Shown here one piece after another: positions 1 to 10,913 of a stretch of DNA of 10,913 nt. Under the pieces are notes generated by a model, which saw nothing but the letters and a program-made list of their open reading frames with translations, had not been told where the DNA came from and did no database searches. The translations under genes and the position numbers were made by a program. Source of the DNA: Thermoanaerobaculia bacterium (GTDB lineage Bacteria; Acidobacteriota; Thermoanaerobaculia; Multivoradales; UBA5704); the NCBI GenBank assembly GCA_035644215.1, contig DASQPA010000064.1, positions 1 through 10,913 on the forward strand, written 5' to 3'. Positions within the stretch are counted from its first letter, which is position 1. Each line of letters starts with the position of its first letter.

Positions 1-165
1 TCTAGTGAACTATTTTTTGTATCCCTTCCTGGGAGTTCTTGTTGGTGGGGCAGGAGGGGGAGCCGTCGGCCTCCTGACGGCCGGGTGGTCCGGTCCAGAT
101 CGGGCGGAATGAGCCCTTGGGAGCAAATAGCTCGGGTGAAGCTGCGGACCTGAGAGACCGCTTCC

Positions 166-1233
166 TCAAGCCGAAGAGCTCTGGGGCACCAGAACGACCT
201 CGCACGGATTCTTCCGCCCGCGGATCAGGCGCGGGATACCTGCCTCCAGCTTGAATCCGTCCAAGTCGATTTGCGAACATCCAAGGTCGAAGGCCTTTTG
301 CAGGTCCGTGCCATAGCCGAGAGCGCGATAGAAACTCCGCGAGAAGCTGATCGCCGCTCTGTCGGTAATCCCCGCAGACATTCCGACCACCGCATCGGTG
401 TGCTCAGCTATAGCCTTTGCCTGCCCTTCGGACAGGCAGGCGTTGAGCACGACACAACGAAGGCGGTCTGAGAAGACGCGGAGCAAATTGGACAGGCTTT
501 CCGCCGACACCTCCCTGGCCACGCCCCCCTCGCTCTCCACAAGGATGGCGTTCGAACGGTTGCCGTGACCGCTGAAGTGGACGAGTCGCGGCCGGTGGGC
601 GAGAAGGGTCCGCTGAAGATCGTCGACACTTATGGCGAGGTCCGACGTGAGGAGGATTCGCTCCCGAAGGGGCGCCTCTCGGAGGACGGCCTCCACCTGG
701 TGAAGCTCGCGAGCAATCCCCAGCGCCGTGCTGCCGTCCGGATTGGCTCCCAGGAAGAGGAAGACCGCACCCGGAAAGAGACGCGCGTATACCAGGTCCT
801 GGATCTCCTGCAAGGAAACCTTCGTCCGGGCCTCCCCATGGATCTGTCGGAGAGCAGCAGCTGCAGCGGCGAGAGCTCGCTCGAGATCACCGGCTGCGAG
901 CTCCACTCTTGTCGAGTCCTCTCCGCTACGCCTTTCCCCGGGCAGCGCCTCAGCGAGATTCCGCAGGAGGGACCTCGCCGAGATCGCGCTGTTCCGGAGC
1001 AGGTGATCCACGGTTATCGTAACGAAGGAGAGAACTAGCACGAGATCCGGAATCAGCCCGAAACCATCGCCGAGCATCTCGTCACCTTCGAGGTGAGGGT
1101 CGGCGAAGTAGGCAGCGGCTAGCTCGTCGAAGTCCTCGATCTCGTCAGGAGCGAGCCGGGTGACGATAGGCTTCGCGAGGTCCCTGACGAGATCTTTCCC
1201 CGGTTCGCTGCGTAGAGCCTTGGCGATCCTCAT
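166..1233 (-). CDS. CHAT-domain (caspase-like Cys/His) peptidase with an unrecognised roughly 150-aa N-terminal helical domain; about 355 aa.
   Basis: Caspase-fold catalytic dyad motifs: PRLVHFSGHGN (His) and LRCVVLNACLSEG (Cys), preceded by a hydrophobic beta-strand AVFLFLGANPDG. This order and spacing is typical of CHAT/caspase-like domains. ATG at 1233 (4th codon of the track ORF, whose first codon is GTG at 1242) with Shine-Dalgarno AAGGTGA and a 5-nt spacer. Last gene of the operon. Confidence 0.75.
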   Translation of the reverse strand: MRIAKALRSEPGKDLVRDLAKPIVTRLAPDEIEDFDELAAAYFADPHLEGDEMLGDGFGLIPDLVLVLSFVTITVDHLLRNSAISARSLLRNLAEALPGERRSGEDSTRVELAAGDLERALAAAAAALRQIHGEARTKVSLQEIQDLVYARLFPGAVFLFLGANPDGSTALGIARELHQVEAVLREAPLRERILLTSDLAISVDDLQRTLLAHRPRLVHFSGHGNRSNAILVESEGGVAREVSAESLSNLLRVFSDRLRCVVLNACLSEGQAKAIAEHTDAVVGMSAGITDRAAISFSRSFYRALGYGTDLQKAFDLGCSQIDLDGFKLEAGIPRLIRGRKNPCEVVLVPQSSSA

Positions 1234-1263
1234 CGATCTCACCTTTCGCCGGCAGTCGCCGGT

Positions 1264-2508
1264 TCAAGCGGTCGTCCTGGCGTTGGCATTTCCCGCGGCC
1301 AGGACTCGGGTCTTCGTCGCCGCCGCCAACTGGGCGAAGGTAAAAACCTCGCCCTTGCCGAGCCCGACGGTGTCTCGGGGCTCGACCGGAGTGGCGACCT
1401 GGGGGGTCAGCCGGCGCCCGCTCACGAAGGTGCCGTTGGTCGAGCCCAGGTCGGCGAGCGAAAGCCGGCCGCCCGCGACCCACAGACGGGCGTGGTGGCG
1501 CGAGACGCCGTCGCTCTCGACGACGATGTCCCCTTCGCGGCCGAGGACGTAGGTGCCCTCCTCGGCCACGGAGGGGGGCGCGGCGAGGGCTCGTGGCGGC
1601 CGGCTCCCGGCCCCGACACCGGCACCGGCCCCGAGCGGCGCCTGGGCGGGGACCGGAAAACCCATCTGTCCCGCGTAGAAGAGCTGCATGAGGCTGTTGG
1701 TGCCGCCTGCCGCGCGCATCGCGACCTCCAGCGCCGCATCGTTCTGATAGAAGCCGAGGAGGAAATTGCGGGCCTCTTCGAGGGGGAGATCCCGCCCCTG
1801 CTCGCGCTTCACCTGCTCGACCATCTGGGCCGCCACCTGATTGAAGAGGAGACCTTTCTGGACCTGCGCCTCCCAGCCCGCGAGGCGCCCCTTGCCCTCC
1901 ATCTGCTCGCGCACTTCCGACTGGACGGCCTGCTTGACCTCTTTGTCGTCGGCGTCGACCTCGGTCAGCCAGACCTCCGGGACGGTGAGGCCCCAGCGGC
2001 GGGCGGTCTGCTCCAGGCCGCCCCGGATGCGCTCCCGCAGACCGCCCGCCGGCCCGCCGCCGAAAAGGACGCTGTCGATCCGCATCGACTGCACGGTCTC
2101 CCGGATCGAGTTCTGCGCCAGGCCGCGGAGGACGATGTTGGCTTCTTCTCCTCCCGCCTTTTGGCCATCCTCACCATCGCGCGAGAAGGGCTGGTAGGTG
2201 CCCGGCCCTTGCTCGAAGAGAGCGACGGCGTCGGTGACCGTGACGCGGAGAGTCGTCTTGAAGGAAATCCGCACCCGGTCGGCGGTGTAGTACTGTGCGG
2301 GCGGAATGTCCACCTGGCGTTCGCGGCGATAGATCACCACCAGCTCGGTGAGCCAAGGGAACAGCCATGTTAGCCCTTCCTGCCGCACGTCGTTCGTGCG
2401 CCGGCCGAGCACCAGCACGATTCCCACGGCGCCCACGGGGACGCGCTTCAAGCCGAGCCCCAGGATGATCAGGGCTCCCAGGGACAACACGACGACGGCA
2501 GCGAGCAT
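1264..2508 (-). CDS. SPFH/band-7 (stomatin/prohibitin/flotillin/HflKC-like) membrane protein with coiled-coil region and C-terminal FHA domain; about 414 aa.
   Basis: N-terminal TM helix MLAAVVVLSLGALIILGLGL, then an SPFH-like core: LKRVPVGAVGIVLVLGRRT...GLTWLFPWLTELVVIYRRERQVDIPPAQYYTADRVRISFKTTLRVTVTDAVALF...NIVLRGLAQNSIRETVQSMRIDSVLFGG. Charged helical region (EVKQAVQSEVREQMEGK...). C-terminal FHA domain: YVLGREGDIVVESDGVSRHHARLWV...LGSTNGTFVSGRRL. ATG at 2508 with GGGAGG (plus 2517-2522) and an 8-nt spacer. The 194-aa Arg/Pro-rich extension in track ORF 1264..3090 was rejected. Confidence 0.8.
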   Translation of the reverse strand: MLAAVVVLSLGALIILGLGLKRVPVGAVGIVLVLGRRTNDVRQEGLTWLFPWLTELVVIYRRERQVDIPPAQYYTADRVRISFKTTLRVTVTDAVALFEQGPGTYQPFSRDGEDGQKAGGEEANIVLRGLAQNSIRETVQSMRIDSVLFGGGPAGGLRERIRGGLEQTARRWGLTVPEVWLTEVDADDKEVKQAVQSEVREQMEGKGRLAGWEAQVQKGLLFNQVAAQMVEQVKREQGRDLPLEEARNFLLGFYQNDAALEVAMRAAGGTNSLMQLFYAGQMGFPVPAQAPLGAGAGVGAGSRPPRALAAPPSVAEEGTYVLGREGDIVVESDGVSRHHARLWVAGGRLSLADLGSTNGTFVSGRRLTPQVATPVEPRDTVGLGKGEVFTFAQLAAATKTRVLAAGNANARTTA

Positions 2509-2516
2509 GGCCGGTA

Positions 2517-2522
2517 CCTCCC
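2517..2522 (-). promoter_or_regulatory. Shine-Dalgarno GGGAGG for the SPFH-FHA gene, 8 nt from the ATG.
   Basis: Plus cctccc at 2517-2522 is GGGAGG on the minus strand, 8 nt upstream of ATG (2508-2506). Confidence 0.7.
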
Positions 2523-2525
2523 TTT

Positions 2526-3248
2526 CTAGGACGCGATGTAGAGCGGGCTGGACTGGGACTGGTTGGCGCGCCCCTGAGTATCCTCCAGCTGGGCCTCGGC
2601 CGAATAGGTACCGTTCGGCGCATTGGAGGGGAGCTCGAACTCCGCGGTCGCATCGACGATCCCACCGCCGTGGGGCACCTTGATCGTCGCGTCCTCGCCG
2701 GTCAGGTAGGAGCCCTGGTACTTGATGCCCCGGTAGCAATGGATCTCCAGGGTCTCCTTGGGATCGGGACCGATGACCAGATAGCGGATGTGGAGGGTCG
2801 CCTTCTGCCCCGGCTGGACGGTCTGCGGATCGAAGCGAATCTCCTGCACCCGGATCACGTAGCCGTCGCCCGGCTGGTAGTTGACGGCGCGCACCGCTTC
2901 GTCGCGGCTGTATTGAACGACGTCTTTGTGGCGCCCGATGAGATAGCCTGCAACCCCACCCACGGCGGCACCGGCCGCGACGCCGCGCGCTACGTTCTGG
3001 CCCAGCAACTTGGCCCGGAGCCCTCCGAGGACGCCGCCGACGATCGCTCCCGTCACGGCGCCCTTGCGGGAACGGTTGGCGGTCACCCACTCCTTTATGG
3101 ATTTCGGCTTTTGATCCTGCGAACCCGCCTGGGACGGGGCCGCAGAGTCGCCTCCGCCGGATGGCTCCTGGGACTGACAGTACGCCGGTGTCCCGGCCAG
3201 GGCTGCGAGCCAGATTGTCATGAGGGCCAATGCGGTGAATCGTTTCAT
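2526..3248 (-). CDS. Secreted glycine-zipper protein (Gly-zipper/17-kDa-surface-antigen-like segment) with a roughly 130-aa C-terminal domain of unknown function; about 240 aa.
   Basis: Starts MKRFTALALMTIWLAALAGTPAYCQ (signal peptide). Glycine zipper: GAVTGAIVGGVLGGLRAKLLGQNVARGVAAGAAVGGVAGYLIG. ATG at 3248 with GGGAGG (plus 3258-3263) and a 9-nt spacer. The upstream part of track ORF 2526..3398 is Arg-rich and was rejected. Confidence 0.7.
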   Translation of the reverse strand: MKRFTALALMTIWLAALAGTPAYCQSQEPSGGGDSAAPSQAGSQDQKPKSIKEWVTANRSRKGAVTGAIVGGVLGGLRAKLLGQNVARGVAAGAAVGGVAGYLIGRHKDVVQYSRDEAVRAVNYQPGDGYVIRVQEIRFDPQTVQPGQKATLHIRYLVIGPDPKETLEIHCYRGIKYQGSYLTGEDATIKVPHGGGIVDATAEFELPSNAPNGTYSAEAQLEDTQGRANQSQSSPLYIAS

Positions 3249-3257
3249 TGTCTCTAT

Positions 3258-3263
3258 CCTCCC
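3258..3263 (-). promoter_or_regulatory. Shine-Dalgarno GGGAGG for the glycine-zipper gene.
   Basis: Plus cctccc at 3258-3263, 9 nt upstream of ATG 3248-3246, in the 22-nt gap after the kinase stop. Confidence 0.65.
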
Positions 3264-3270
3264 GTTATCC

Positions 3271-5037
3271 CTATTGCGGTGGCTTCTTGACCACCGAATC
3301 CTGGGTCTTGATCTTTGTCTTGTTGAAGAGATCCTTGAGGGCCTGATCGGCCTGTGCCGCGAGCTCCCGCGCCCGATCGGCGACCGTCTCGGGAACACCG
3401 TTCTCGCCGGCCAACTTCGTGGCCATCTGCCTGGCTTCAGGGTAGGACTTCTCGCCGATCAGGCCTTCGATCTGCTGCAGGCGCTGCTGCCACTTCTCCT
3501 TCTCGCTCTCCTTGCGAAGGGAGTCCGTTTTCAGCGAAATCTGTGTCGTGGTGATCTCCTCGTCGAGGGCATGCAGGCGGGCGACCTCTTCAATGAGATC
3601 GGCGCGGTAGGGAACGGCCGTCTCTTGCAGGCGGCTGAGCCGAGAACGGGCGGCGGTGAACTGCTGCGCCTCGATGTCGGAACGCACGATCTCTATCCCC
3701 TGCCGGAGGGTCTCGCGAATCCGGACGAGCTCAAGCTGATGGGTCTGCACGTCGACCATGGCGGGCGACGGACGGGAACGAGGCGGTTCCGAAGGTTGGC
3801 GCTCGGCCCGCGGCGCTTCGTGACGGTGCGAAGGTGCCACCGGCTCGGCCGGGGTGAGGACGGCGACCGGCGTCGACCGCAGATTCCCCTCCAGAGGGCG
3901 GGAGGACGGCGGCGCGGAGACGCTCTCCGGGCTCACCGAAGGCGACGGTCCCAGAGTCGCGGCGGCAGCCGGCGCCTCGGCCGGAGGCGGCGCGGCGGGC
4001 AGCGCGGCGAAGTGGGCGATACCGAAGGCCACGAAGGCAAGAAGGAGAGCGGCGCCAGCCGCCACCCACAGCCGCCGAGCGGCGGGCTTTCGGCCAGCTG
4101 CCCCGGGCAGCGGCGGCGGAGACGGACGAGGGAGTACCGGGGCCGGAGCGGGAGACGGGGCCGGCGGCGCCGGAGGGCGCTGGGGGACCGTCGGGGAGGT
4201 CGTGAGGTCGGCGCTCCCCGGGGTCATCGCGTCGCGGAGAGCCCGCAGCATCTCGCCGGCGCTCTGGAAGCGATCGTCCGGTCGCTTGGCGAGCGCCCGC
4301 AACACTACTCTCGCCACCGCCGGCGGCACTCCCGACTGCAGCGTGGAGAGATCGGGTGGAGTCGCCTCTACCTGGAACTTGCTGACCTCGAACACGCTTT
4401 CGGCGTCGAAGGGCGGCGCGCCGTTCAGCATCTCAAAAAAAACGATGGCGGCGCTGTAGATGTCGGTCCGGTGGTCCATCTCGCGCGGCCGGAGGATCTG
4501 TTCGGGAGACATGTAGACTGGCGTACCGATCGAGGACTGCGACGCGGTCAGACGCTTGTCGCCGACGAGGAGGGCGATGCCGAAGTCCATGAGCTTCACC
4601 CGCCCGTCGGGGGTGAGCAGGATGTTCGACGGCTTGACGTCCCTGTGGATGACCCCTTCGGAGTGGGCGTAGTCGAGAGCCGCGAGCACCTGGGAGAAGA
4701 TCCCCACCGCCTCGCCCAAGGCGAGACCCCGACCCGCGCGCTCGGCGAGCCAGCTGTCGCAGGAGCGCCCGGTGACCAGCTCCATGACGATGAAAAAGTC
4801 GTCCTCGTCCTCGATCAGGTCGAACACCGAGACGATGTTGGGATGCTGCAGGCGCGCCTGGGTCCGCGCCTCGGAGAAAAACCTTTCTTTGAACTCGGGC
4901 TGGCGGGTCAGCTCGGGCGCCAGCTCCTTGATCGCCACCTGGCGGCGCAGGTGCTCGTGGGTGCCGCGGTAGACGACCCCCATGCCGCCCCGGCCGACCA
5001 ACTCGTCGATGCGGTAGGGTCCGACGTGCGTCTTCAT
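3271..5037 (-). CDS. Hanks-type Ser/Thr protein kinase (RD kinase), Pro-rich juxtamembrane segment, single TM helix, and a roughly 240-aa extracytoplasmic helical/coiled-coil sensor domain; about 588 aa.
   Basis: GRGGMGVVYRG; VAIKEL; HRDVKPSNILL; DFGIA; GTPVYMSPEQ; DIYSAAIVFFEMLNGAPPF. Juxtamembrane sequence TTSPTVPQRPPAPPAPSPAPAPVLPRPSPPPLPG. TM helix LWVAAGAALLLAFVAFGIAHFAAL. The C-terminal domain is helical with a coiled-coil-like stretch (KTDSLRKESEKEKWQQRLQQIEGL). ATG at 5037 with AGGAG (plus 5045-5049) and a 7-nt spacer. The track ORF extension (3271..5229) is Arg-rich and was rejected. Confidence 0.9.
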   Translation of the reverse strand: MKTHVGPYRIDELVGRGGMGVVYRGTHEHLRRQVAIKELAPELTRQPEFKERFFSEARTQARLQHPNIVSVFDLIEDEDDFFIVMELVTGRSCDSWLAERAGRGLALGEAVGIFSQVLAALDYAHSEGVIHRDVKPSNILLTPDGRVKLMDFGIALLVGDKRLTASQSSIGTPVYMSPEQILRPREMDHRTDIYSAAIVFFEMLNGAPPFDAESVFEVSKFQVEATPPDLSTLQSGVPPAVARVVLRALAKRPDDRFQSAGEMLRALRDAMTPGSADLTTSPTVPQRPPAPPAPSPAPAPVLPRPSPPPLPGAAGRKPAARRLWVAAGAALLLAFVAFGIAHFAALPAAPPPAEAPAAAATLGPSPSVSPESVSAPPSSRPLEGNLRSTPVAVLTPAEPVAPSHRHEAPRAERQPSEPPRSRPSPAMVDVQTHQLELVRIRETLRQGIEIVRSDIEAQQFTAARSRLSRLQETAVPYRADLIEEVARLHALDEEITTTQISLKTDSLRKESEKEKWQQRLQQIEGLIGEKSYPEARQMATKLAGENGVPETVADRARELAAQADQALKDLFNKTKIKTQDSVVKKPPQ

Positions 5038-6296
5038 GGCTGTTCTCCTGGGGTTTTGTCCGCCGCCCCGCCGTCGGCGCCATGGGCGCGGCGGAAAGCC
5101 GCCTGGCGCGCGGCGACGGCGGCGAGGAGTGGCGCGCCGCTCGCGTAACGTCCACGACCGTCGAGCAGTGAGAAGTAGTGCTTGTGGCCGCCGCGCGCCG
5201 CGAGGACGAGCGTGTAAGGGCTCTCCCACAGGCCGCCGTCGACCGCGAGCGAGGTGAGCTCAGCCCAGGGAACCGACCACTCGGCGGCACCGTGGCCGGC
5301 GCGGTGGAGGGAGATTCCGTCCTTGGACAAGCGCAGCTGCGCCGTCGCCTCTCCGCCGAAGCCCACCCCGGCGGTGGCCGGACGCACCGTGAACACCGAA
5401 TCGGAGCGCTCGGCTGCCGATGCAGGCTCGGTTTTTCCTGCGGCGGTCGCTGGCGCAGACACGGTCCTCTTCCCGGCGGCCGTAACCGCGGGTGCGGCTT
5501 TTTCGGCAGCCGCAGGCGCGGTTTTCCCGGTGGCCGGTGGGGGTGCGCTCGCCAACTTGGCCACCGCCCGGTCCTTGAGGTCGCGGGTGCGCACCACCAG
5601 GTCCACCGGCAACCGCGGCTCGAGCAGCAGGCAGTCGGCCTGTTCGACCGCCGCCTCCAACTTGCCGTCGAGCACGAGGTCTGCGATCTGGAGCACCTCG
5701 CGGCTCCATTCCTGCAGCTCCGAAGCCGAGGGTGCCGGGGGCTGATCGCCCACCCGCAGCAGACCGGGACGCTCCGCCAGCCGCCGAAACCAAGCGAGAA
5801 GGGGCGCCGACGACCGCAGGGCTGCGGCGACGGCGAGCCGGGCGGCGCGGTGGTCGTCTCCCGCGGTGCCGGCAGGCAGGAGGAGCGGACCGAAGAGGAA
5901 GAGCTCCGGCGGGTCCTTCTTCGGCGGACCGTCGCCCAGGGCGATGAGCAGGGTGGCGGTCGCCACGGCGGACCGCCCGGAACGCGGCAACGTCACCTGC
6001 AGGTCCCACCAGAGGGGCACCACCTCCGGACCCGGCGCGCGGCACACCTCCGTGAACCGGGCAGCGGCCGGGAGGGCGGAGTGGTCGGCGCAGACCACCA
6101 CGCCGCCGTCCCAGGCCCGTTCGCGCAGGGCCTCCTCGATCTCGCTGCGGTCCTCCGCCGCCAGGGAACGGCCCGGAGCGTCCGCGGCGCGGAGGATCGT
6201 GCGGAGCGCGGGAGACTCCGCCTCGGCGCCCCAGCCGGCCGGCACCCCCGGCACACCCGCCAGTGCCGCCAGCGCGAGGACAGCCCACGCCATCAT
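5034..6296 (-). CDS. Secreted/periplasmic protein of unknown function, about 420 aa: signal peptide, roughly 240-aa N-domain, Ala/Pro/Lys-rich flexible linker, roughly 100-aa C-terminal beta-rich (possibly PH-like) domain.
   Basis: ATG pair at 6296/6293 begins MMAWAVLALAALAGVPGVPAGWGAEA, a Sec-type signal peptide. The upstream part of track ORF 5034..6485 is Arg/Cys-rich junk. Low-complexity linker: PPPATGKTAPAAAEKAAPAVTAAGKRTVSAPATAAGKTEPASAAE. Stop TGA (5034-5036) overlaps the ATG of the downstream kinase (ATGA). The exact start is uncertain because the Shine-Dalgarno sequence is weak (AGGTG directly abutting the ATG). Confidence 0.6.
   Translation of the reverse strand: MMAWAVLALAALAGVPGVPAGWGAEAESPALRTILRAADAPGRSLAAEDRSEIEEALRERAWDGGVVVCADHSALPAAARFTEVCRAPGPEVVPLWWDLQVTLPRSGRSAVATATLLIALGDGPPKKDPPELFLFGPLLLPAGTAGDDHRAARLAVAAALRSSAPLLAWFRRLAERPGLLRVGDQPPAPSASELQEWSREVLQIADLVLDGKLEAAVEQADCLLLEPRLPVDLVVRTRDLKDRAVAKLASAPPPATGKTAPAAAEKAAPAVTAAGKRTVSAPATAAGKTEPASAAERSDSVFTVRPATAGVGFGGEATAQLRLSKDGISLHRAGHGAAEWSVPWAELTSLAVDGGLWESPYTLVLAARGGHKHYFSLLDGRGRYASGAPLLAAVAARQAAFRRAHGADGGAADKTPGEQP
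5045..5049 (-). promoter_or_regulatory. Shine-Dalgarno AGGAG for kinase 1, inside the 3' end of the upstream secreted-protein gene.
   Basis: Plus ctcct at 5045-5049, 7 nt upstream of ATG 5037-5035. Consistent with coupled translation across the ATGA overlap. Confidence 0.6.
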
Positions 6297-6372
6297 CACC
6301 TGCCGGATCCGCCGGCCGCCGGAATTCGTCGTTTGCTCCACGTCCTGTCTCCTTCCTTCCGCTCTCCCGGCT

Positions 6373-7542
6373 CTACGGCCGGGGATAGGACAAATGCTTC
6401 TGCCGCAGCGTGGCGAGCACCGCCTCGCCGGCCGGGCCGCCGGCCTCGGCGAGCTGACAGCTGCGCCGCATCTCCTCCAGCTCATGGCGCGCCCAAAGTC
6501 CGTCCTCCGAGTCCTCGGCGAGGGTGGCCGCGAGATCGCGCGCCTCGAGATAGGTCGGATCGGTCAACGCGCAATGGTGATCGAGCACCTTCTCCTCGAA
6601 GGCCGACTGCAGTGCCTGAAACCGCGGCCGGAGCCCCGCTCCGCCCGCCTCCATCGGCACGCCGCCGCTCGGGGGCGGGGTCCCTGGCTCTACCGGACCG
6701 CCCACCACCAGCCAGCCGCCAAGGAGGGCGAGACCGCCGGCGGTGGCCGCGGCCAGCCACCACTGCGAGCGCAGGAACGGGATCCGGCGGGGCGTCGCGG
6801 TGCCGGCCGGCGGCAGGACGGCACCGCGACGGGCACGCCGATATGCGAGGCGCAGCGCTCCGGCATCGGTATAGCGTTCGCCGGGCAGGTGGCGTCTCGC
6901 CTTCTCCACCACCGCCATCAGAGCGGCCGCCGGCCGCGGCAGGGCGGCGAGGATTTCGGCGAGCATCTGGCCCAACGCGTAGACATCGGTCGCGCAGGCG
7001 AGCGCGCCGCCTTCGACCTGCTCGGGCGCTCCGTAGGGGAGCGAGTAGGCCCGGAGCCCAGGGCCCCCCGCCCGCCGGGCGATCCCGAAATCGATCAGCA
7101 CCGGTTGCGGGCCGGGGGCGCTCTCGGTGACGAGGACGTTGTCCGGCTTCAAGTCGAGGTGGAGGAAGGGCACCGCACGGTGGTGGAGATAGTCCACCGC
7201 GCCCAACATCTGCTCGAAGAGGTCGAGCACCCGCTCGGCGGCCGCGGCGTTCCTCTGCACCCAGGCGTCGAGCGGCACGCCGTCGACTTTCTCCATCAAC
7301 AGGCAGACCCGCTCCTGGGGGTCGAAGTGGCAGCGCCGGAAGGTCACGATGTTGGGATGCCGCAGCTGCCTCAGAAGCGCCGCCTCCTCGGCGAAGGCGG
7401 CGCGCACGGCGGGGAGAGCGCTCATCTCGGCGTTCAGGCGCTTGAGGATCAGCCTCTCGGGGAGAGCGCTCGCCGCGTCCTCGACCTCGAAGATCTCCGA
7501 AAAGCCGCCGCCCGAAAGGCGGGCGATGATCCGATAGTCCAT
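6373..7542 (-). CDS. Hanks-type Ser/Thr protein kinase, non-RD subclass (HLD instead of HRD), single TM helix and a short periplasmic helical domain; 389 aa.
   Basis: Gly-rich loop LSGGGFSEIFEV; beta3 Lys in LILKRL; catalytic loop HLDLKPDNVLV (Arg of HRD replaced by Leu); DFGIA; APE (YGAPEQ). TM helix WWLAAATAGGLALLGGWLVVGG, then a roughly 100-aa C-terminal domain. ATG at 7542 with GGAG 9 nt upstream. Confidence 0.85.
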   Translation of the reverse strand: MDYRIIARLSGGGFSEIFEVEDAASALPERLILKRLNAEMSALPAVRAAFAEEAALLRQLRHPNIVTFRRCHFDPQERVCLLMEKVDGVPLDAWVQRNAAAAERVLDLFEQMLGAVDYLHHRAVPFLHLDLKPDNVLVTESAPGPQPVLIDFGIARRAGGPGLRAYSLPYGAPEQVEGGALACATDVYALGQMLAEILAALPRPAAALMAVVEKARRHLPGERYTDAGALRLAYRRARRGAVLPPAGTATPRRIPFLRSQWWLAAATAGGLALLGGWLVVGGPVEPGTPPPSGGVPMEAGGAGLRPRFQALQSAFEEKVLDHHCALTDPTYLEARDLAATLAEDSEDGLWARHELEEMRRSCQLAEAGGPAGEAVLATLRQKHLSYPRP

Positions 7543-7562
7543 GCCGCCGGTCTCCGTCCCAG

Positions 7563-9023
7563 TCAGAGCACGCCATGGCTGTGCAGGAAGGAGCGGATGT
7601 CGTCAGCGCTCACCGCCTTGTTGCCGGCGTTGACCGGCTCCTGCATCAGGATTTCCTGGCCCTGCACGTTGATCGATTTCGCCTGCTGGAACTGCTGCGA
7701 GACGATGCCGATGAGCTCGCCTTTGTCGTTAATCACCGCGCCGCCGCTGCTGCCGTGGGTGACCGCGGCGTCGAAGACGACGTAGTTGGCGCCGGTGCTG
7801 CCGGTCAGCGGGTGGGTGACCGTGCCGGCGACGAAGGTGGGGGTCACCTCGGTGATGTTCGACAGGTCGGCGCCGAATCCCGACAGATTGCGGACCTGCG
7901 CCGGCCGCTCGCCCAAGTTGGCCGGATAGCTGATCACCGCGATGCGGTCGGTAACGTGGACGGCGGCATTCGAGGCGACGATCGGCACCTCGTGCGCCGC
8001 CGTCGTCTGGATCTGGACGAGCGCCAAGTCGAACTCGTCCGAGGAGGCGACCAGGGTGGCCTTCAGCGGCTGCTGGCCCGGGAATTGAACCTGCAGTTCG
8101 TCGTACTCGGCCTTGGCCGAGCTCTTGCGCTGAAGGACCTCCCAGTCGGCGAACTGCAGCTTCCAGGGCTCGACCACGTGCTTGGCGGTGAGCACCAGCC
8201 CGGGCCGGACCAGCACACCCGAACCGGTGACGCCGCCGAAGAGCAGAACTTCGCCCGAGGCGAGCGCCACCCCTTGGTTGTTGGAGGCGACGATCTTGGG
8301 CATCTTCACGCGGTAGAGGCAGCGGATGTGCACCGCCGCCGGGCTCACCTTCTTTTCGACGTCCCCCCAGATATTGCCGGCCTGTTGAGTGACCTTTGCG
8401 AGCCGGGTCTGTGTCTCGGAGGTCTCCGCCTTGTGCCGGACCTCCTGACGGTGGTTCCAAAAGAGGAAGGCGGTAAGTCCGCCGCCGGCTAAGACCAGCA
8501 CGGCGAGGAGGCCGGCGGTCAGCCAGACGCCGGTCGAGCGGCGGGTGCTGGCGATCTGGCCGGCGACGGCGTCGCGCTCCTCGCCGCGGGCGCGGTCGAT
8601 CTCGCGCAGGAGAGTCGCCCGGCCGACCGACTCCTTGCCGGCCGCGGGCGGCGGGGCACCGGCCGGAACCGCCGCCGCCGCCGGAGCGTCCGCCATCTCG
8701 AGCACCGCCTGCATCTCCGGACCCTGGCGGGCGAGGCGGATGCGCGAGCCGTCGGCCACCGCGATGCGCTGGAAGGGCGGACAGGGCGCGCCGTTGACGA
8801 AGGTGCCGTTCGAGCTGCGCTTGTCCTCGATGTAGAGGCGCCCCTTCTCCAGGCTCAATTCGGCGTGGGTGGTGCTCACGCTGTCGTCGGCCGTGTCGCT
8901 GAACTTGACGTCGTTCGTCTCGCCGCGGCCGAGTCGCAACACCTGGCCCTCCTTGATGGCGATGCGCTGGCTGCGGCCAGCGAGCGATCCGTTGAGATGC
9001 CTGAGGCTCAGAATCGTCGACAC
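7563..9023 (-). CDS. N-terminal FHA domain - single TM helix - C-terminal trypsin-like (S1/chymotrypsin-fold) serine protease, 486 aa.
   Basis: FHA domain at aa ~25-100: LRLGRGETNDV...STTHAEL...KRSSNGTFVNG. TM helix at aa ~166-189: VWLTAGLLAVLVLAGGGLTAFLFW. The protease domain has catalytic His (LTAKHVV), Asp (DEFDLALV) and a GDSGG-like Ser motif (THGSSGGAVI). GTG start at 9023 with Shine-Dalgarno AGGAGGAG (plus 9029-9036) and a 5-nt spacer. Confidence 0.85.
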   Translation of the reverse strand: MSTILSLRHLNGSLAGRSQRIAIKEGQVLRLGRGETNDVKFSDTADDSVSTTHAELSLEKGRLYIEDKRSSNGTFVNGAPCPPFQRIAVADGSRIRLARQGPEMQAVLEMADAPAAAAVPAGAPPPAAGKESVGRATLLREIDRARGEERDAVAGQIASTRRSTGVWLTAGLLAVLVLAGGGLTAFLFWNHRQEVRHKAETSETQTRLAKVTQQAGNIWGDVEKKVSPAAVHIRCLYRVKMPKIVASNNQGVALASGEVLLFGGVTGSGVLVRPGLVLTAKHVVEPWKLQFADWEVLQRKSSAKAEYDELQVQFPGQQPLKATLVASSDEFDLALVQIQTTAAHEVPIVASNAAVHVTDRIAVISYPANLGERPAQVRNLSGFGADLSNITEVTPTFVAGTVTHPLTGSTGANYVVFDAAVTHGSSGGAVINDKGELIGIVSQQFQQAKSINVQGQEILMQEPVNAGNKAVSADDIRSFLHSHGVL

Positions 9024-9028
9024 CGTCT

Positions 9029-9036
9029 CTCCTCCT
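9029..9036 (-). promoter_or_regulatory. Shine-Dalgarno AGGAGGAG for the FHA-protease gene, which starts at GTG.
   Basis: Plus ctcctcct at 9029-9036, 5 nt upstream of GTG 9023-9021. Confidence 0.7.
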
Positions 9037-9063
9037 GCTCGCCTGTGGGTACGAGCGTGTAGC

Positions 9064-9855
9064 TCATGGAAGGGAAGCGCCGGAAGAAGGCTCGACCGGC
9101 TCGATTTGGAGAAAGATCAGCTCCACTCCACCGCAGCGGATACGGTCGCGGTCGCGCAGAGCGACCGTGCCGTTGGTCGGTACCTCCTCGCCGTTGACGA
9201 AGGTGCCATTGGTCGACATCCGGTCGGCGAGGAAGAAGCTGGTGCCGCGGTGGAGGAGCAAGGCATGCTCGGCGGATACCTGGAGATCGGCGCCCAGACA
9301 GACGTCGCTCGCGCGGTCGCCGCCGATCGTGTTCTTGCCCTGGCGGACGGCGAAAACGGTCCCTCCTGGCCCGAGCGAGGGCGCCGCAAGAACGGCCACC
9401 AGGGGCCGGGAGGCCACCGCCGGGGAGGAAATCGGGGCCGCCGGCGCGGCGATCTCGACGGCCGGGGGCAACCCAGCGGGAGAGCTCGCCTTGCCGGCAT
9501 CCCCCAGGGCACCGGCGAGCATCGTCCGGCGCGGCGCCGCTGACCCCGCCAAGCCCGCCGGCACTGCCTCCAGGCGGGTGGCGCGGCTGCCGCTCGGCAC
9601 CGTCGGCTGGACCACGGTCGGGTTGTAGGAGGAGGGCGACGGTGGGCCGGCGGCGGCCCCTTCGAGCCGGGTGGAGCGCCCCGGACCGTCTCCGCCCGCC
9701 CGCAGGCGGTCACAGTACGGGCAACTGCGCCAGCTGGGATCGATCGGATGCCCAGCGGGGCAGCGCAGGGTCGCCGCCTGCAAGGGAGCGCCGCACATGA
9801 GGCAGGCCGGCTCCGCGTCGGGATTCAGGGTACGACAGCTGGCGCATTCGATCAC
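9064..9855 (-). CDS. Double zinc-ribbon (4x Cys pairs) + Pro/Ala-rich linker + C-terminal FHA domain protein, 263 aa.
   Basis: The N-terminus has two CxxC...CxxC units (CASC...CLMCG; CPAGH...CPYCD). The C-terminus is a canonical FHA domain: GGDRASDVCL...SAEHALLL...MSTNGTFVNGEEV...RDRDRIRCGG. The start is GTG at 9855, preceded by a strong Shine-Dalgarno AAGGAG (plus 9863-9868) with a 7-nt spacer. The GTGA overlap with the PP2C stop implies translational coupling. Confidence 0.8.
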   Translation of the reverse strand: MIECASCRTLNPDAEPACLMCGAPLQAATLRCPAGHPIDPSWRSCPYCDRLRAGGDGPGRSTRLEGAAAGPPSPSSYNPTVVQPTVPSGSRATRLEAVPAGLAGSAAPRRTMLAGALGDAGKASSPAGLPPAVEIAAPAAPISSPAVASRPLVAVLAAPSLGPGGTVFAVRQGKNTIGGDRASDVCLGADLQVSAEHALLLHRGTSFFLADRMSTNGTFVNGEEVPTNGTVALRDRDRIRCGGVELIFLQIEPVEPSSGASLP

Positions 9856-10733
9856 AGGGTCTCTCCTTGGAAGGTCTCGCCGCCGCCCGCCGGGAATGCC
9901 TCGACCCGGGTGATGCGCCGGCCTCGTCCCGAGCTCTCGGCGCAGGTCACCCGCAGGTAGCCGACCGTGATGTTGTCCGCGCTGTGCGCCGCCAAGGCGG
10001 CGTCGAGAAGCCGTTGGCAGATCTCGGCTGTGGACCCGGAACTCGCCGCGAGGACGACGATCTGGGCGATCTCGTCATCGGGCAGGGCGCCGTGCAGGCC
10101 GTCCGACGAGAGCAGGATGAGGTCGCCGGAGTTGAGCGCAAGCGGCACTTGCACCTCGGGCTCCAGAGGTCCGGACTGGCCGATGGCACGCTGGATCACG
10201 TTGCTGTCGGGGTGGCCGAACGCCTCCTCTTCGGCGAGCAGCCCGTCGCGCACCATCTGGCCGACCAACGAATGGTCGGAGGTCAAGCGGGTGAACGCCC
10301 GCCCACGCAGGAGATAGGCGCGGCTGTCGCCCGCATGGGCCAGGTGGAGCATCGGCTGGCCGGGCTCGCCGGCGGCGACCGCCATCACCGCGGTGGCTCC
10401 CATACCCTCGGCGCCGCCGCGTGCGGCCGTGGCGCGCACCGCCTCCTGGGAGGCGGCGAAGGCCTGCCGAAGCCGGTCCTCCCAGGCCAGACTGTCGCCT
10501 CCCGGCCGCTGCAGCACCTCGACGGCCACCCGCAAGACGATCTCCGCCGCCTCGCGGCCCGCCGCGTGACCGCCCATTCCATCGACAACGAGGAGCACCC
10601 CCTCTCCCGCCTCGCCCTGCCAGGCGGCCGCCGCGTCCTGGTTCTCCTCCCGCACCGGACCGCAGATTGAGACCACGTCCATCTCGATTCGATCCGCCGG
10701 GCGGCCGGTCTGCGGCATGAGCGGTGGGTTCAT
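9852..10733 (-). CDS. PP2C-family Ser/Thr protein phosphatase, about 293 aa. I take ATG at 10733; ATG at 10718 or 10682 (MDVVSICGPVREENQD, the canonical PP2C N-terminus) are alternatives.
   Basis: Minus-strand translation carries classic PP2C metal-binding motifs: LLVVDGMGGHAAG, HAGDSRAYLL, LLSSDGLHG, DNITVGYL. The N-terminal R-x-x-NQD motif is also present. GGGAG lies 6 nt upstream of ATG 10733. The stop TGA (9852-9854) overlaps the GTG start of the next gene. The track ORF 9852..10838 starts at TTG with a Pro/Arg-rich, non-protein-like extension, so I trimmed it to the Shine-Dalgarno-preceded ATG. Confidence 0.85.
   Translation of the reverse strand: MNPPLMPQTGRPADRIEMDVVSICGPVREENQDAAAAWQGEAGEGVLLVVDGMGGHAAGREAAEIVLRVAVEVLQRPGGDSLAWEDRLRQAFAASQEAVRATAARGGAEGMGATAVMAVAAGEPGQPMLHLAHAGDSRAYLLRGRAFTRLTSDHSLVGQMVRDGLLAEEEAFGHPDSNVIQRAIGQSGPLEPEVQVPLALNSGDLILLSSDGLHGALPDDEIAQIVVLAASSGSTAEICQRLLDAALAAHSADNITVGYLRVTCAESSGRGRRITRVEAFPAGGGETFQGETL
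9863..9868 (-). promoter_or_regulatory. Shine-Dalgarno AAGGAG for the zinc-ribbon-FHA gene, which starts at GTG, embedded in the 3' end of the PP2C gene.
   Basis: Plus ctcctt at 9863-9868, 7 nt upstream of GTG 9855-9853. Confidence 0.65.
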
Positions 10734-10739
10734 TGGGGT

Positions 10740-10744
10740 CTCCC
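10740..10744 (-). promoter_or_regulatory. Shine-Dalgarno GGGAG for the PP2C gene, the first gene of the operon.
   Basis: Plus ctccc at 10740-10744, 6 nt upstream of ATG 10733-10731. Confidence 0.55.
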
Positions 10745-10913
10745 AGGGTTCGGGCGGCGGCCGATCCGCCGCCGTTCTCCTAGACACCGGATCGCCGCGA
10801 ATGTTGAGCCCGGGAGAGCGACCTCCAGGACCCAACAAAACAGCCGCCTTCAGGGTCTCAATAGGACGAAATGCGCGCCGTATGGACCGTCCACGACCGA
10901 CCCTTGGCCCGGC

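Follow-up and report, generated by a model that had tools for sequence, protein, structure and literature searches.

In the Pseudomonas aeruginosa H1 type VI secretion system (T6SS), envelope perturbation is sensed and relayed through TagQRST-PpkA-Fha1-PppA, a pathway that has accessory proteins in the outer membrane and periplasm, a single-pass Hanks kinase, an FHA reader and a PP2C phosphatase that resets it (PMC7817224). Here I describe a gene cluster that shares the logic of this threonine phosphorylation pathway. It lies in a DNA stretch of 10,913 nt (hereafter the window) from a Thermoanaerobaculia bacterium (Acidobacteriota; UBA5704), an uncultured soil organism known as a metagenome-assembled genome (GCA_035644215.1, contig DASQPA010000064.1, positions 1–10,913, forward strand; source contig labelled L001), and comprises nine genes, g1 to g9. 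I put at about an even chance the reading that g1–g8 are a conserved, envelope-spanning Ser/Thr phospho-signalling operon, to which the CHAT peptidase gene g9 is a replaceable 3' accessory.

Among described systems, the cluster would work most like the T6SS envelope-damage pathway, and the glycine-zipper of g7 weakly resembles TagQ-type lipoproteins. The two differ, however, in that PpkA has a vWA domain and the window kinases do not, and in that the cluster has a protease and an SPFH scaffold as its outputs in place of a secretion machine. The FHA domains of the cluster score 20–32 bits with VI_FHA (TagH) against a cut-off of 120, the TagQ score is 27.9 against 300, and no T6SS genes were found in any annotated ∼21-kb locus.

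The actinobacterial FhaA/FhaB(FipA)-PstP-RodA-PbpA-PknA-PknB locus also combines a PP2C phosphatase, multiple FHA proteins and two tandem-encoded transmembrane (TM) kinases in one operon, and FhaB is the top-scoring NCBIfam family for all three FHA domains of the window, under its equivalog cut-off. That locus has RodA, a penicillin-binding protein (PBP) and a PASTA sensor; the window has none of these, and its FHA fusions differ (zinc ribbon, S1 protease and SPFH).

In the HflK/C-FtsH and stomatin/QmcA-NfeD/YbbJ pairs, as here, the gene for an SPFH protein accompanies that for a membrane protease, and a first-pass annotation of the window had drawn on the caging of proteases by such proteins. 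This does not fit the predicted topology, in which the HtrA-like S1 domain lies on the opposite, periplasmic face and the SPFH-FHA protein, with its QmcA/stomatin-like anchor, is mostly cytoplasmic. With the two on opposite faces, coupling would have to run via cytoplasmic FHA domains or TM segments, and the link would be between FHA domains and phosphothreonine. None of the nine products has a Pfam match to NfeD or FtsH (Peptidase_M41/AAA).

In modules of vWA, serine/threonine kinase (STK), FHA and PP2C, a kinase/phosphatase pair acts on FHA outputs with variable fused domains (Kaur et al. 2020, PMC7159879), and Esr is a threat-sensing pathway with variable FHA outputs (PMC13622651, preprint). 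The likeness of these, and of Deinococcus DRA0331-0334 (preprint), lies in a shared CHAT effector clade and in the vWA-FHA proteins of differently organised relatives of the cluster (class B, below). Compared with the vWA-MoxR ternary and Esr systems, however, the window is without a MoxR ATPase, a vWA domain (Pfam) or a beta-propeller surface sensor, and SPFH-FHA and FHA-TM-S1 outputs are not listed in the Kaur et al., Esr or Deinococcus papers. As for single components, g3 resembles DegS/HtrA as a membrane-anchored periplasmic S1 protease with an intact triad, but has no PDZ domain and carries a cytoplasmic FHA domain at its N-terminus. Compared with SAVED-CHAT, TPR-CHAT (Craspase) and DdvA, g9 has no SAVED, TPR or anti-sigma module, and has a family-specific helical N-terminal domain of ∼150 amino acids instead.

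Searches against PADLOC-DB v2 gave only generic matches (PD-T4-6/mad6 kinases, RT-protease trypsin, chat, SAVED_CHAT) and none for g2, g5, g7 or g8, and every NCBIfam equivalog score falls well short of its cut-off. On these profile comparisons the cluster belongs to none of the named systems, as the first-pass annotation had supposed. No description of SPFH-FHA proteins, FHA-TM-S1 proteins or this cluster was found in the searchable literature, whose coverage is incomplete, so that the negative amounts to absence of evidence and no more. Familiar building blocks here have unusual fused outputs, and the families of g5 and of SPFH-FHA are, like the eight-gene core itself, both rare and uncharacterised.

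A conserved core of eight genes

The window holds nine long open reading frames (ORFs) between positions 166 and 10733, every one on the minus strand. The gene model, for which start codons and ribosome-binding sites were inspected, agrees with independent gene calls for the source contig, and is as follows.

9852..10733, minus strand: g1, PP2C-type Ser/Thr phosphatase, 293 amino acids, predicted cytoplasmic, the 'eraser'
9064..9855, minus strand: g2, double zinc-ribbon, Pro/Ala-rich linker and FHA domain, 263 amino acids, putative cytoplasmic adaptor
7563..9023, minus strand: g3, FHA-TM-S1 protease (HtrA/DegS-like, without PDZ), 486 amino acids
6373..7542, minus strand: g4, short non-RD Hanks kinase, 389 amino acids, a variable member of the core
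5034..6341, minus strand: g5, predicted exported or anchored protein with a PH/PTB-like C-terminal domain, 435 amino acids
3271..5037, minus strand: g6, long RD (Arg-Asp) Hanks kinase, 588 amino acids
2526..3248, minus strand: g7, predicted exported glycine-zipper protein with a beta-rich C-terminal domain, 240 amino acids
1264..2508, minus strand: g8, TM-SPFH/Band-7-FHA protein, the signature gene of the cluster, 414 amino acids
166..1233, minus strand: g9, accessory caspase-like CHAT peptidase, 355 amino acids, outside the conserved core
10734..10870, no strand: divergent intergenic region of 137 nt separating the g1 start (ATG) from the ATG start of a divergent gene, presumed to hold the operon promoter

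Pfam assigned PP2C, double zinc-ribbon with FHA, FHA with Trypsin_2, two Pkinase domains, Band_7 with FHA, and CHAT. These matches, with profile and fold checks for CHAT and SPFH, bear out every domain call of the first-pass annotation, including the full writer/eraser/reader set with three FHA proteins of different output; seven products had been described there, and g5 and g7 passed over. The cluster had been ended at 10745, which falls in a Trp codon, and the likely start of g1 is the ATG at 10733, with a GGGAG ribosome-binding site. The nine genes are indeed co-directional and tightly packed; a reported 76-nt gap stems from the choice of ATG 6296 for g5. From g1 to g9 the junctions measure −4, 40, 20, 31, −4, 22, 17 and 30 nt, with 4-nt overlaps at g1/g2 (GTGA) and g5/g6 (ATGA). 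This spacing (gaps of at most 40 nt and two overlaps), together with a chance-level number of terminator-like hairpins inside the cluster (6 found against 5.1 expected in a terminator scan), suggests that the nine genes form one transcription unit. Scans of the window identified no promoter or terminator, the sigma-70 consensus not being found in the 137-nt region, and a fold of the 3' tail gave no informative structure.

At least nine independent loci from metagenomes (hereafter class A) have the core; in these, gene tables and tblastn mapping gave the same order and orientation, g1-g2-g3-(g4)-g5-g6-g7-g8. For the high-GC relatives, genes were chosen by ORF selection guided by strand and by GC content at third codon positions (GC3). 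Identity of g8 to the source is 94% in L004, 68% in L005, 66% in L009, 58% in L006, 53% in L008 and in L016, 50% in L013 and 44% in L015. All eight core genes are present in L001, L004, L008, L009, L013, L015 and L016, and seven or fewer in L005 and L006; the fragments L010, L020, L023 and L026 are consistent with the core arrangement. The overlaps at g1/g2 and g5/g6 recur in L004, L006 and L008, so translational coupling is conserved, and each locus has flanks of its own (MacB, ThiG/pantothenate genes, DoxX/PDZ, SnoaL, integrase). Because gene order and overlaps persist at 25–45% identity while the flanks change, these comparisons provide strong evidence that the eight-gene block is a selected functional module. 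In this neighbourhood analysis, which the first-pass annotation had proposed, SPFH-FHA, FHA-S1, kinase and PP2C genes co-occur collinearly across diverged genomes.

The block is rare. In pattern-limited scans, four SPFH-FHA loci were found among 185,579 GTDB species representatives and seven, two being duplicates, in the JGI metagenome collection; no SPFH-FHA was found in IMG/VR viral contigs or PLSDB plasmids.

Predicted products of the core

g8 has an N-terminal TM segment (residues 2–20) followed by basic residues, a divergent SPFH domain, a coiled region, a Pro-rich linker and an FHA domain (Pfam Band_7 2.9e-19, 70.2 bits against a cut-off of 23.6; FHA 2.1e-14). The above-threshold match and the N-terminal membrane anchor identify it as an SPFH/Band-7 protein, the SPFH domain being nearest to QmcA and stomatin, with weak similarity (E-value ∼1e-4). 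In its FHA domain, G323, R324, S336, R337, H339, S356, N358 and G359 are invariant in 18 sequences, and the canonical phosphothreonine-binding residues (GR, SxxH, (S/T)xNG) are present in both g8 and g3. FHA domains require phosphothreonine, and the bulk of QmcA and of stomatin is cytoplasmic. Because its FHA domain needs phosphothreonine, most of g8 is likewise predicted to be cytoplasmic. The SPFH-FHA fusion is uncommon, with ∼36 full-length relatives among 5.8 billion proteins, and no interaction between FHA and phosphothreonine was found described for any SPFH protein in the literature searched. In one subgroup (L014:6638-8017, L025:9848-11230, P0029, P0030, P0032 and P0033) a zinc-ribbon lies between SPFH and FHA, in effect merging the g2-type and g8-type architectures in one protein.

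g3 (Pfam FHA 5.9e-16, Trypsin_2 1.2e-21) is predicted to consist of a cytoplasmic FHA domain (residues ∼1–100), one TM segment (170–188, from hydropathy) and a periplasmic S1 protease, whose nearest solved relatives are DegS, DegQ and HtrA1 (E-value 2e-9). The GR, S..H and NG motifs of the FHA domain and the His/Asp/Ser triad are conserved in the orthologues, except for His to Gln in L006. Pfam found no PDZ domain, and with the NCBIfam DegS model g3 reaches 47 bits, where the cut-off is 408. By fold and sequence, g3 is thus HtrA-like and not a canonical HtrA/DegS member. The third FHA protein, g2 (Pfam FHA 4e-13, DZR 1.8e-5), has four Cys pairs that are conserved among orthologues; it also passes the Pfam cut-off for Yop-YscD_cpl (40.4 against 33.2 bits).

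The phosphatase g1 matches Pfam PP2C (7.6e-19, 68.8 bits against a cut-off of 20.3) and NCBIfam Stp1/IreP (178 bits, under the cut-off of 230), and the PP2C metal-binding motifs DGMGG, GDSR, SDG and DN are kept in eight orthologues. Both g4 (Pkinase 1.8e-26, 93.5 bits) and g6 (1e-52, 179.6 bits; cut-off 31.7 for both) have and conserve the Gly-rich loop, Lys, catalytic Asp-Asn, DFG and APE of Hanks kinases, g6 with RD and g4 with HLD at the catalytic position. In g4 these motifs (G-loop, Lys, HLDLKPxN, DFG and APE) are kept in six orthologues, and hydropathy predicts one TM segment (263–281) and an extracytoplasmic helical tail of ∼100 amino acids. g6 comprises a PknB-like catalytic domain, a Pro/Thr-rich juxtamembrane segment, a TM segment (323–341), a Pro-rich linker and a predicted extracytoplasmic helical domain of ∼160 amino acids; its activation loop, DFGIALLVGDKRLT..S..IGTPVYMSPEQ, is nearly invariant across orthologues. 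The NCBIfam PknB match (310 bits against a cut-off of 450) covers the kinase domain only, and NCBIfam and Pfam scans found no PASTA repeats in g4 or g6.

The two remaining products, g5 and g7, carry predicted signal peptides. g5 has no match in Pfam, NCBIfam or PADLOC; it consists of a signal or anchor, a domain with two invariant Cys, a helical region, an Ala/Pro linker and a C-terminal PH/PTB-like domain. Its family counts 59 members among 1.84 billion representative proteins, with 25–33% identity across class A loci. g7, which in class A always lies immediately before the SPFH-FHA gene, matches Pfam Gly-zipper_YMGG (3e-6) and Gly-zipper_Omp (4e-5), and NCBIfam YiaD and TagQ weakly, in the zipper region only. 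In its orthologues the double glycine-zipper and the beta-rich C-terminal domain are conserved, unlike the lipobox Cys. For the extracytoplasmic regions of g4, g5, g6 and g7, relaxed Pfam scans gave nothing significant. I also considered g7 as an NfeD analogue, given its C-terminal beta domain and its position before an SPFH gene, and rejected this, since nothing in the sequence supports it and g7 is predicted to lie in the periplasm.

The CHAT gene and rival readings

The last gene, g9, encodes a conserved all-helical N-terminal domain (residues 1–152) and a short CHAT domain (156–340), for which profile and fold checks gave the caspase-hemoglobinase fold and His-Cys dyad of clan CD. Its best structural match is a SAVED-CHAT defence protease; relaxed Pfam scans of its N-terminal domain, and of the N-terminal region of g5, found no significant match. 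In composition g9 stands apart, with a GC3 of 0.73 and GC of 0.63 against 0.83–0.91 and 0.66–0.74 for g1–g8 (the 165-nt tail has GC 0.61), so that there is a compositional boundary at the g8/g9 junction. In L004, the 94%-identical relative, g1–g8 are intact and homology extends through the first 74 codons of g9 (90% amino acid identity), up to about window position 1010, and then gives way to unrelated DNA (L004:11279-21248) with ORFs of 712 and 723 amino acids, a Phage_integrase, more unknown ORFs and a helix-turn-helix (HTH) gene. The break looks like an integrative element or a replacement; no transfer RNA (tRNA) gene was found near it. No CHAT gene was seen in the available context of L013 (∼1.2 kb upstream and 2.5 kb downstream), L015 or L016.

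Full-length g9 homologues occur on three long contigs with no kinase or FHA genes adjoining (L017:4721-9879, L018:5294-9886, L019:7344-9856). There the CHAT gene is divergent from a conserved pair, encoding a membrane protein of 667–685 amino acids that matches Peptidase_M48 (27.5 bits, cut-off 20.3) and has a conserved N-terminus, 'MAEE..RLLNPFAFPSETELR', and a protein of ∼165 amino acids. This arrangement may represent an uncharacterised CHAT-M48 module. L017 and L018 carry the pair in tandem duplicate, with a fusion of the two (845 amino acids) in L017. In the source, no such partner lies upstream of g9, and in the 299 nt that follow g9 to the end of the contig there is no M48-like partner and no ORF. 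I also asked whether the divergent gene of >546 amino acids upstream of the PP2C gene could be that partner, the kinase block having been inserted in a CHAT/M48 pair, and rejected this, as the two show no similarity.

CHAT genes nevertheless adjoin the core in seven loci, all Thermoanaerobaculia-type (L001, L004 as a remnant, L005, L006, L008, L009 and L010), and belong to at least three subfamilies in differing positions. A CHAT-FGE-sulfatase gene is divergent from PP2C in L005, and the same type occupies the slot directly after SPFH-FHA in L009 and L010; L006 has a short CHAT gene immediately upstream of PP2C on the same strand, and L008 has CHAT-TPR and Peptidase_C14-HEAT genes 2–5 kb downstream. 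This linkage therefore appears recurrent and replaceable, as of an accessory effector or client and not a fixed operon member. The first-pass annotation had treated all nine genes as one unit, but g9 is best placed outside the core because of its lower GC3, the cut in L004, the absence of CHAT from several core loci and the pairing of its own family with the M48-like protein.

A first rival, towards which the first-pass annotation had leaned, is abortive infection directed against phages or other invaders, in which kinase signalling would license cell killing or arrest by the CHAT executioner and the S1 protease. The g9 clade includes fusions to EAD, STAND/AAA, SAVED, NB-ARC, TPR and GUN4, modules typical of conflict-system effectors, and the best structural match named above, the recurrence of CHAT genes beside the core, swapped as effectors are, and a fusion of FHA and CHAT all speak for it. 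So do the integrase, AbiJ/Abi_C, M78+DUF4411 and TIR genes in some flanks, and the precedents for kinase-based defence, seen in the generic PD-T4-6, MADS6 and PglW kinase matches. However, no system-specific PADLOC model matches the cluster, the matches being only generic ones to kinase, trypsin and chat domains; the core persists without CHAT in the L013 interval and stays intact where CHAT is cut in L004; full-length g9 homologues elsewhere pair with the M48-like protein and not with kinases; housekeeping genes flank the core in L006; and the cluster is missing from the viral and plasmid collections searched. Most components, moreover, face or span the envelope and would not sense cytoplasmic nucleic acid. 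I therefore regard abortive infection as unlikely, though it fares best among the rivals.

The FHA-CHAT fusion, P0150 (326 amino acids), lies within the g9 clade and forms a 'Rosetta-stone' link between phosphothreonine reading and the CHAT family of g9.

The second rival concerns routine envelope growth, and here other SPFH-FHA neighbourhoods are relevant. In class B, which comprises L011 (the same as L022) and L025, the SPFH-FHA gene is divergent from genes for a zinc-ribbon FHA protein, a vWA-FHA protein, a long PP2C and one to three kinases, one of which bears a YARHG domain (L011:398-9522, L025:274-13041). This is a second, differently organised multi-FHA module. Peptidoglycan hydrolases lie near it, SLT-TPR and NlpC/P60-SH3 in L011 and M23 in L025, which fits an envelope theme. 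These hydrolases agree with a regulator of growth and division like the actinobacterial locus, acting in routine peptidoglycan or outer-membrane biogenesis, as do the shared parts list (PP2C, at least two FHA proteins and two kinases in one operon) and FhaB/FipA as the best NCBIfam model for the FHA domains. The FhaB scores, however, are 35–43 bits, far under the cut-off of 125, and there is no RodA/FtsW, PBP gene or PASTA domain; the great rarity of the cluster (a handful of uncultured Acidobacteriota; four GTDB representatives) and its decay in L005 and L006 also argue against a housekeeping role. A division regulator is thus improbable, slightly more so than abortive infection.

Acidobacteriota have many kinase, FHA and PP2C genes, and the class A loci may come from related lineages, but that the nine genes are neighbours by ancestry or chance, without a shared function, is scarcely credible, as the first-pass annotation had held, since order and start/stop overlaps survive deep divergence (to 25–45% identity) with both flanks changing in every locus, and g5 and SPFH-FHA are essentially confined to this context.

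Elsewhere, a zinc-ribbon SPFH-FHA gene in L014 lies alongside genes for a kinase-FGE-sulfatase protein and a PEGA protein, and L012 has only a kinase, ∼8 kb from SPFH-FHA. SPFH-FHA is thus consistently tied to Hanks-kinase signalling, and only class A has the FHA-protease, g5 and g7.

Proposed mechanism and flanking regions

If g1–g8 are an envelope-spanning phospho-signalling operon, the helical domains of g6 and g4 in the periplasm would, along with the exported g5 and g7, sense an envelope cue. Activation and autophosphorylation of the kinases would create phosphothreonine sites, probably in the g6 activation loop, its Thr/Pro-rich juxtamembrane segment and the linkers, on which the FHA domains of g3 and g8, and perhaps that of g2, would dock. 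For g3, which lacks the usual PDZ regulator, recruitment could control periplasmic proteolysis from the inside out or cluster the protease at the kinase. Stomatin and QmcA assemblies are 16–26-mers (entries 9wmj, 8z5g), and if g8 is oligomeric by analogy, it would display many FHA domains as a high-avidity scaffold that gathers the phosphorylated complex in a membrane patch. g2 would serve as a zinc-ribbon adaptor, its FHA domain possibly non-canonical, and the PP2C g1 would reset the system. CHAT peptidases may be loosely coupled cytoplasmic effectors or clients, swapped repeatedly, and the locus would here have acquired a g9-type one downstream of g8. In physiological terms, the output most probably lies in envelope stress, in quality control or in a response to threats.

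Several points weigh against this phospho-signalling operon. In the g2 FHA domain (residues ∼177–181), the S..H, NG and Gly positions are kept, but most orthologues lack the phosphate-binding Arg of GR or have it at a shifted position, and the domain may bind differently or independently of phosphorylation. The oligomerisation and cytoplasmic orientation of g8 are extrapolated from the weak similarity to QmcA and stomatin (E-value ∼1e-4). The structure model of g5, built on a shallow alignment, is usable for the C-terminal domain only and poor elsewhere (mean predicted local distance difference test, pLDDT, of 46). Not all parts are indispensable: L006 has no g4, and its FHA-S1 orthologue (L006:4487-5887), which has Gln in place of the catalytic His and in which the GxSGG motif is degenerate, is a possible pseudo-protease, while in the otherwise intact cluster of L005 g4 and most of g5 are deleted, codons 1–31 of g4 being fused to the PH-like C-terminal part of g5 with a frameshift (L005:6920-7465). 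A single acidobacterial lineage may have given rise to every class A locus, in which case the synteny could partly reflect ancestry, although the flanks are not conserved. Lastly, gene order, domains, catalytic and phosphothreonine-binding residues and block conservation can be read directly from the loci, whereas operon status, topology and mechanism are deduced.

STK/PP2C/FHA modules are common and their outputs mostly unknown; here the outputs are hard-wired through gene fusion. If the mechanism holds, the cluster would be a tractable case of cytoplasmic phosphorylation controlling periplasmic proteolysis inside-out, g8 the first SPFH protein with defined phospho-dependent client recruitment, and the locus a natural link between Hanks-kinase signalling and caspase-like CHAT peptidases. 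A bolder version, a 'phospho-raft signalosome', has an SPFH cage with an FHA crown capturing phosphothreonine-bearing receptor kinases and the FHA-tethered HtrA-like protease, with CHAT as cytoplasmic executioner. I consider this improbable, and slightly less probable than either abortive infection or a division regulator. Were it true, a switchable membrane compartment would couple a periplasmic cue to proteolysis on both membrane faces, with SPFH-protease control by phosphothreonine docking and not NfeD/FtsH caging, a prokaryotic parallel to raft-associated receptor-kinase/caspase signalling.

Upstream of g1, the divergent gene of >546 amino acids starts within window positions 10871–10913 (plus strand), continues in L001:1-1638 (minus strand) and has no Pfam match. 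L008 has a large unannotated divergent gene at the equivalent position, with no homology to that of the source detected; in L004 the divergent gene is conserved at 92%.

Some loci also have defence-type genes ∼6–10 kb downstream of the cluster, past housekeeping genes. These are Peptidase_M78+DUF4411, Hypoth_Ymh and AbiJ_NTD3/Abi_C in L006 (17559-21202), and, in L007 (9567-12932), genes for an integrase, an HTH protein and a CAP12-PCTIR TIR protein, so that this region differs between two otherwise identical contigs.

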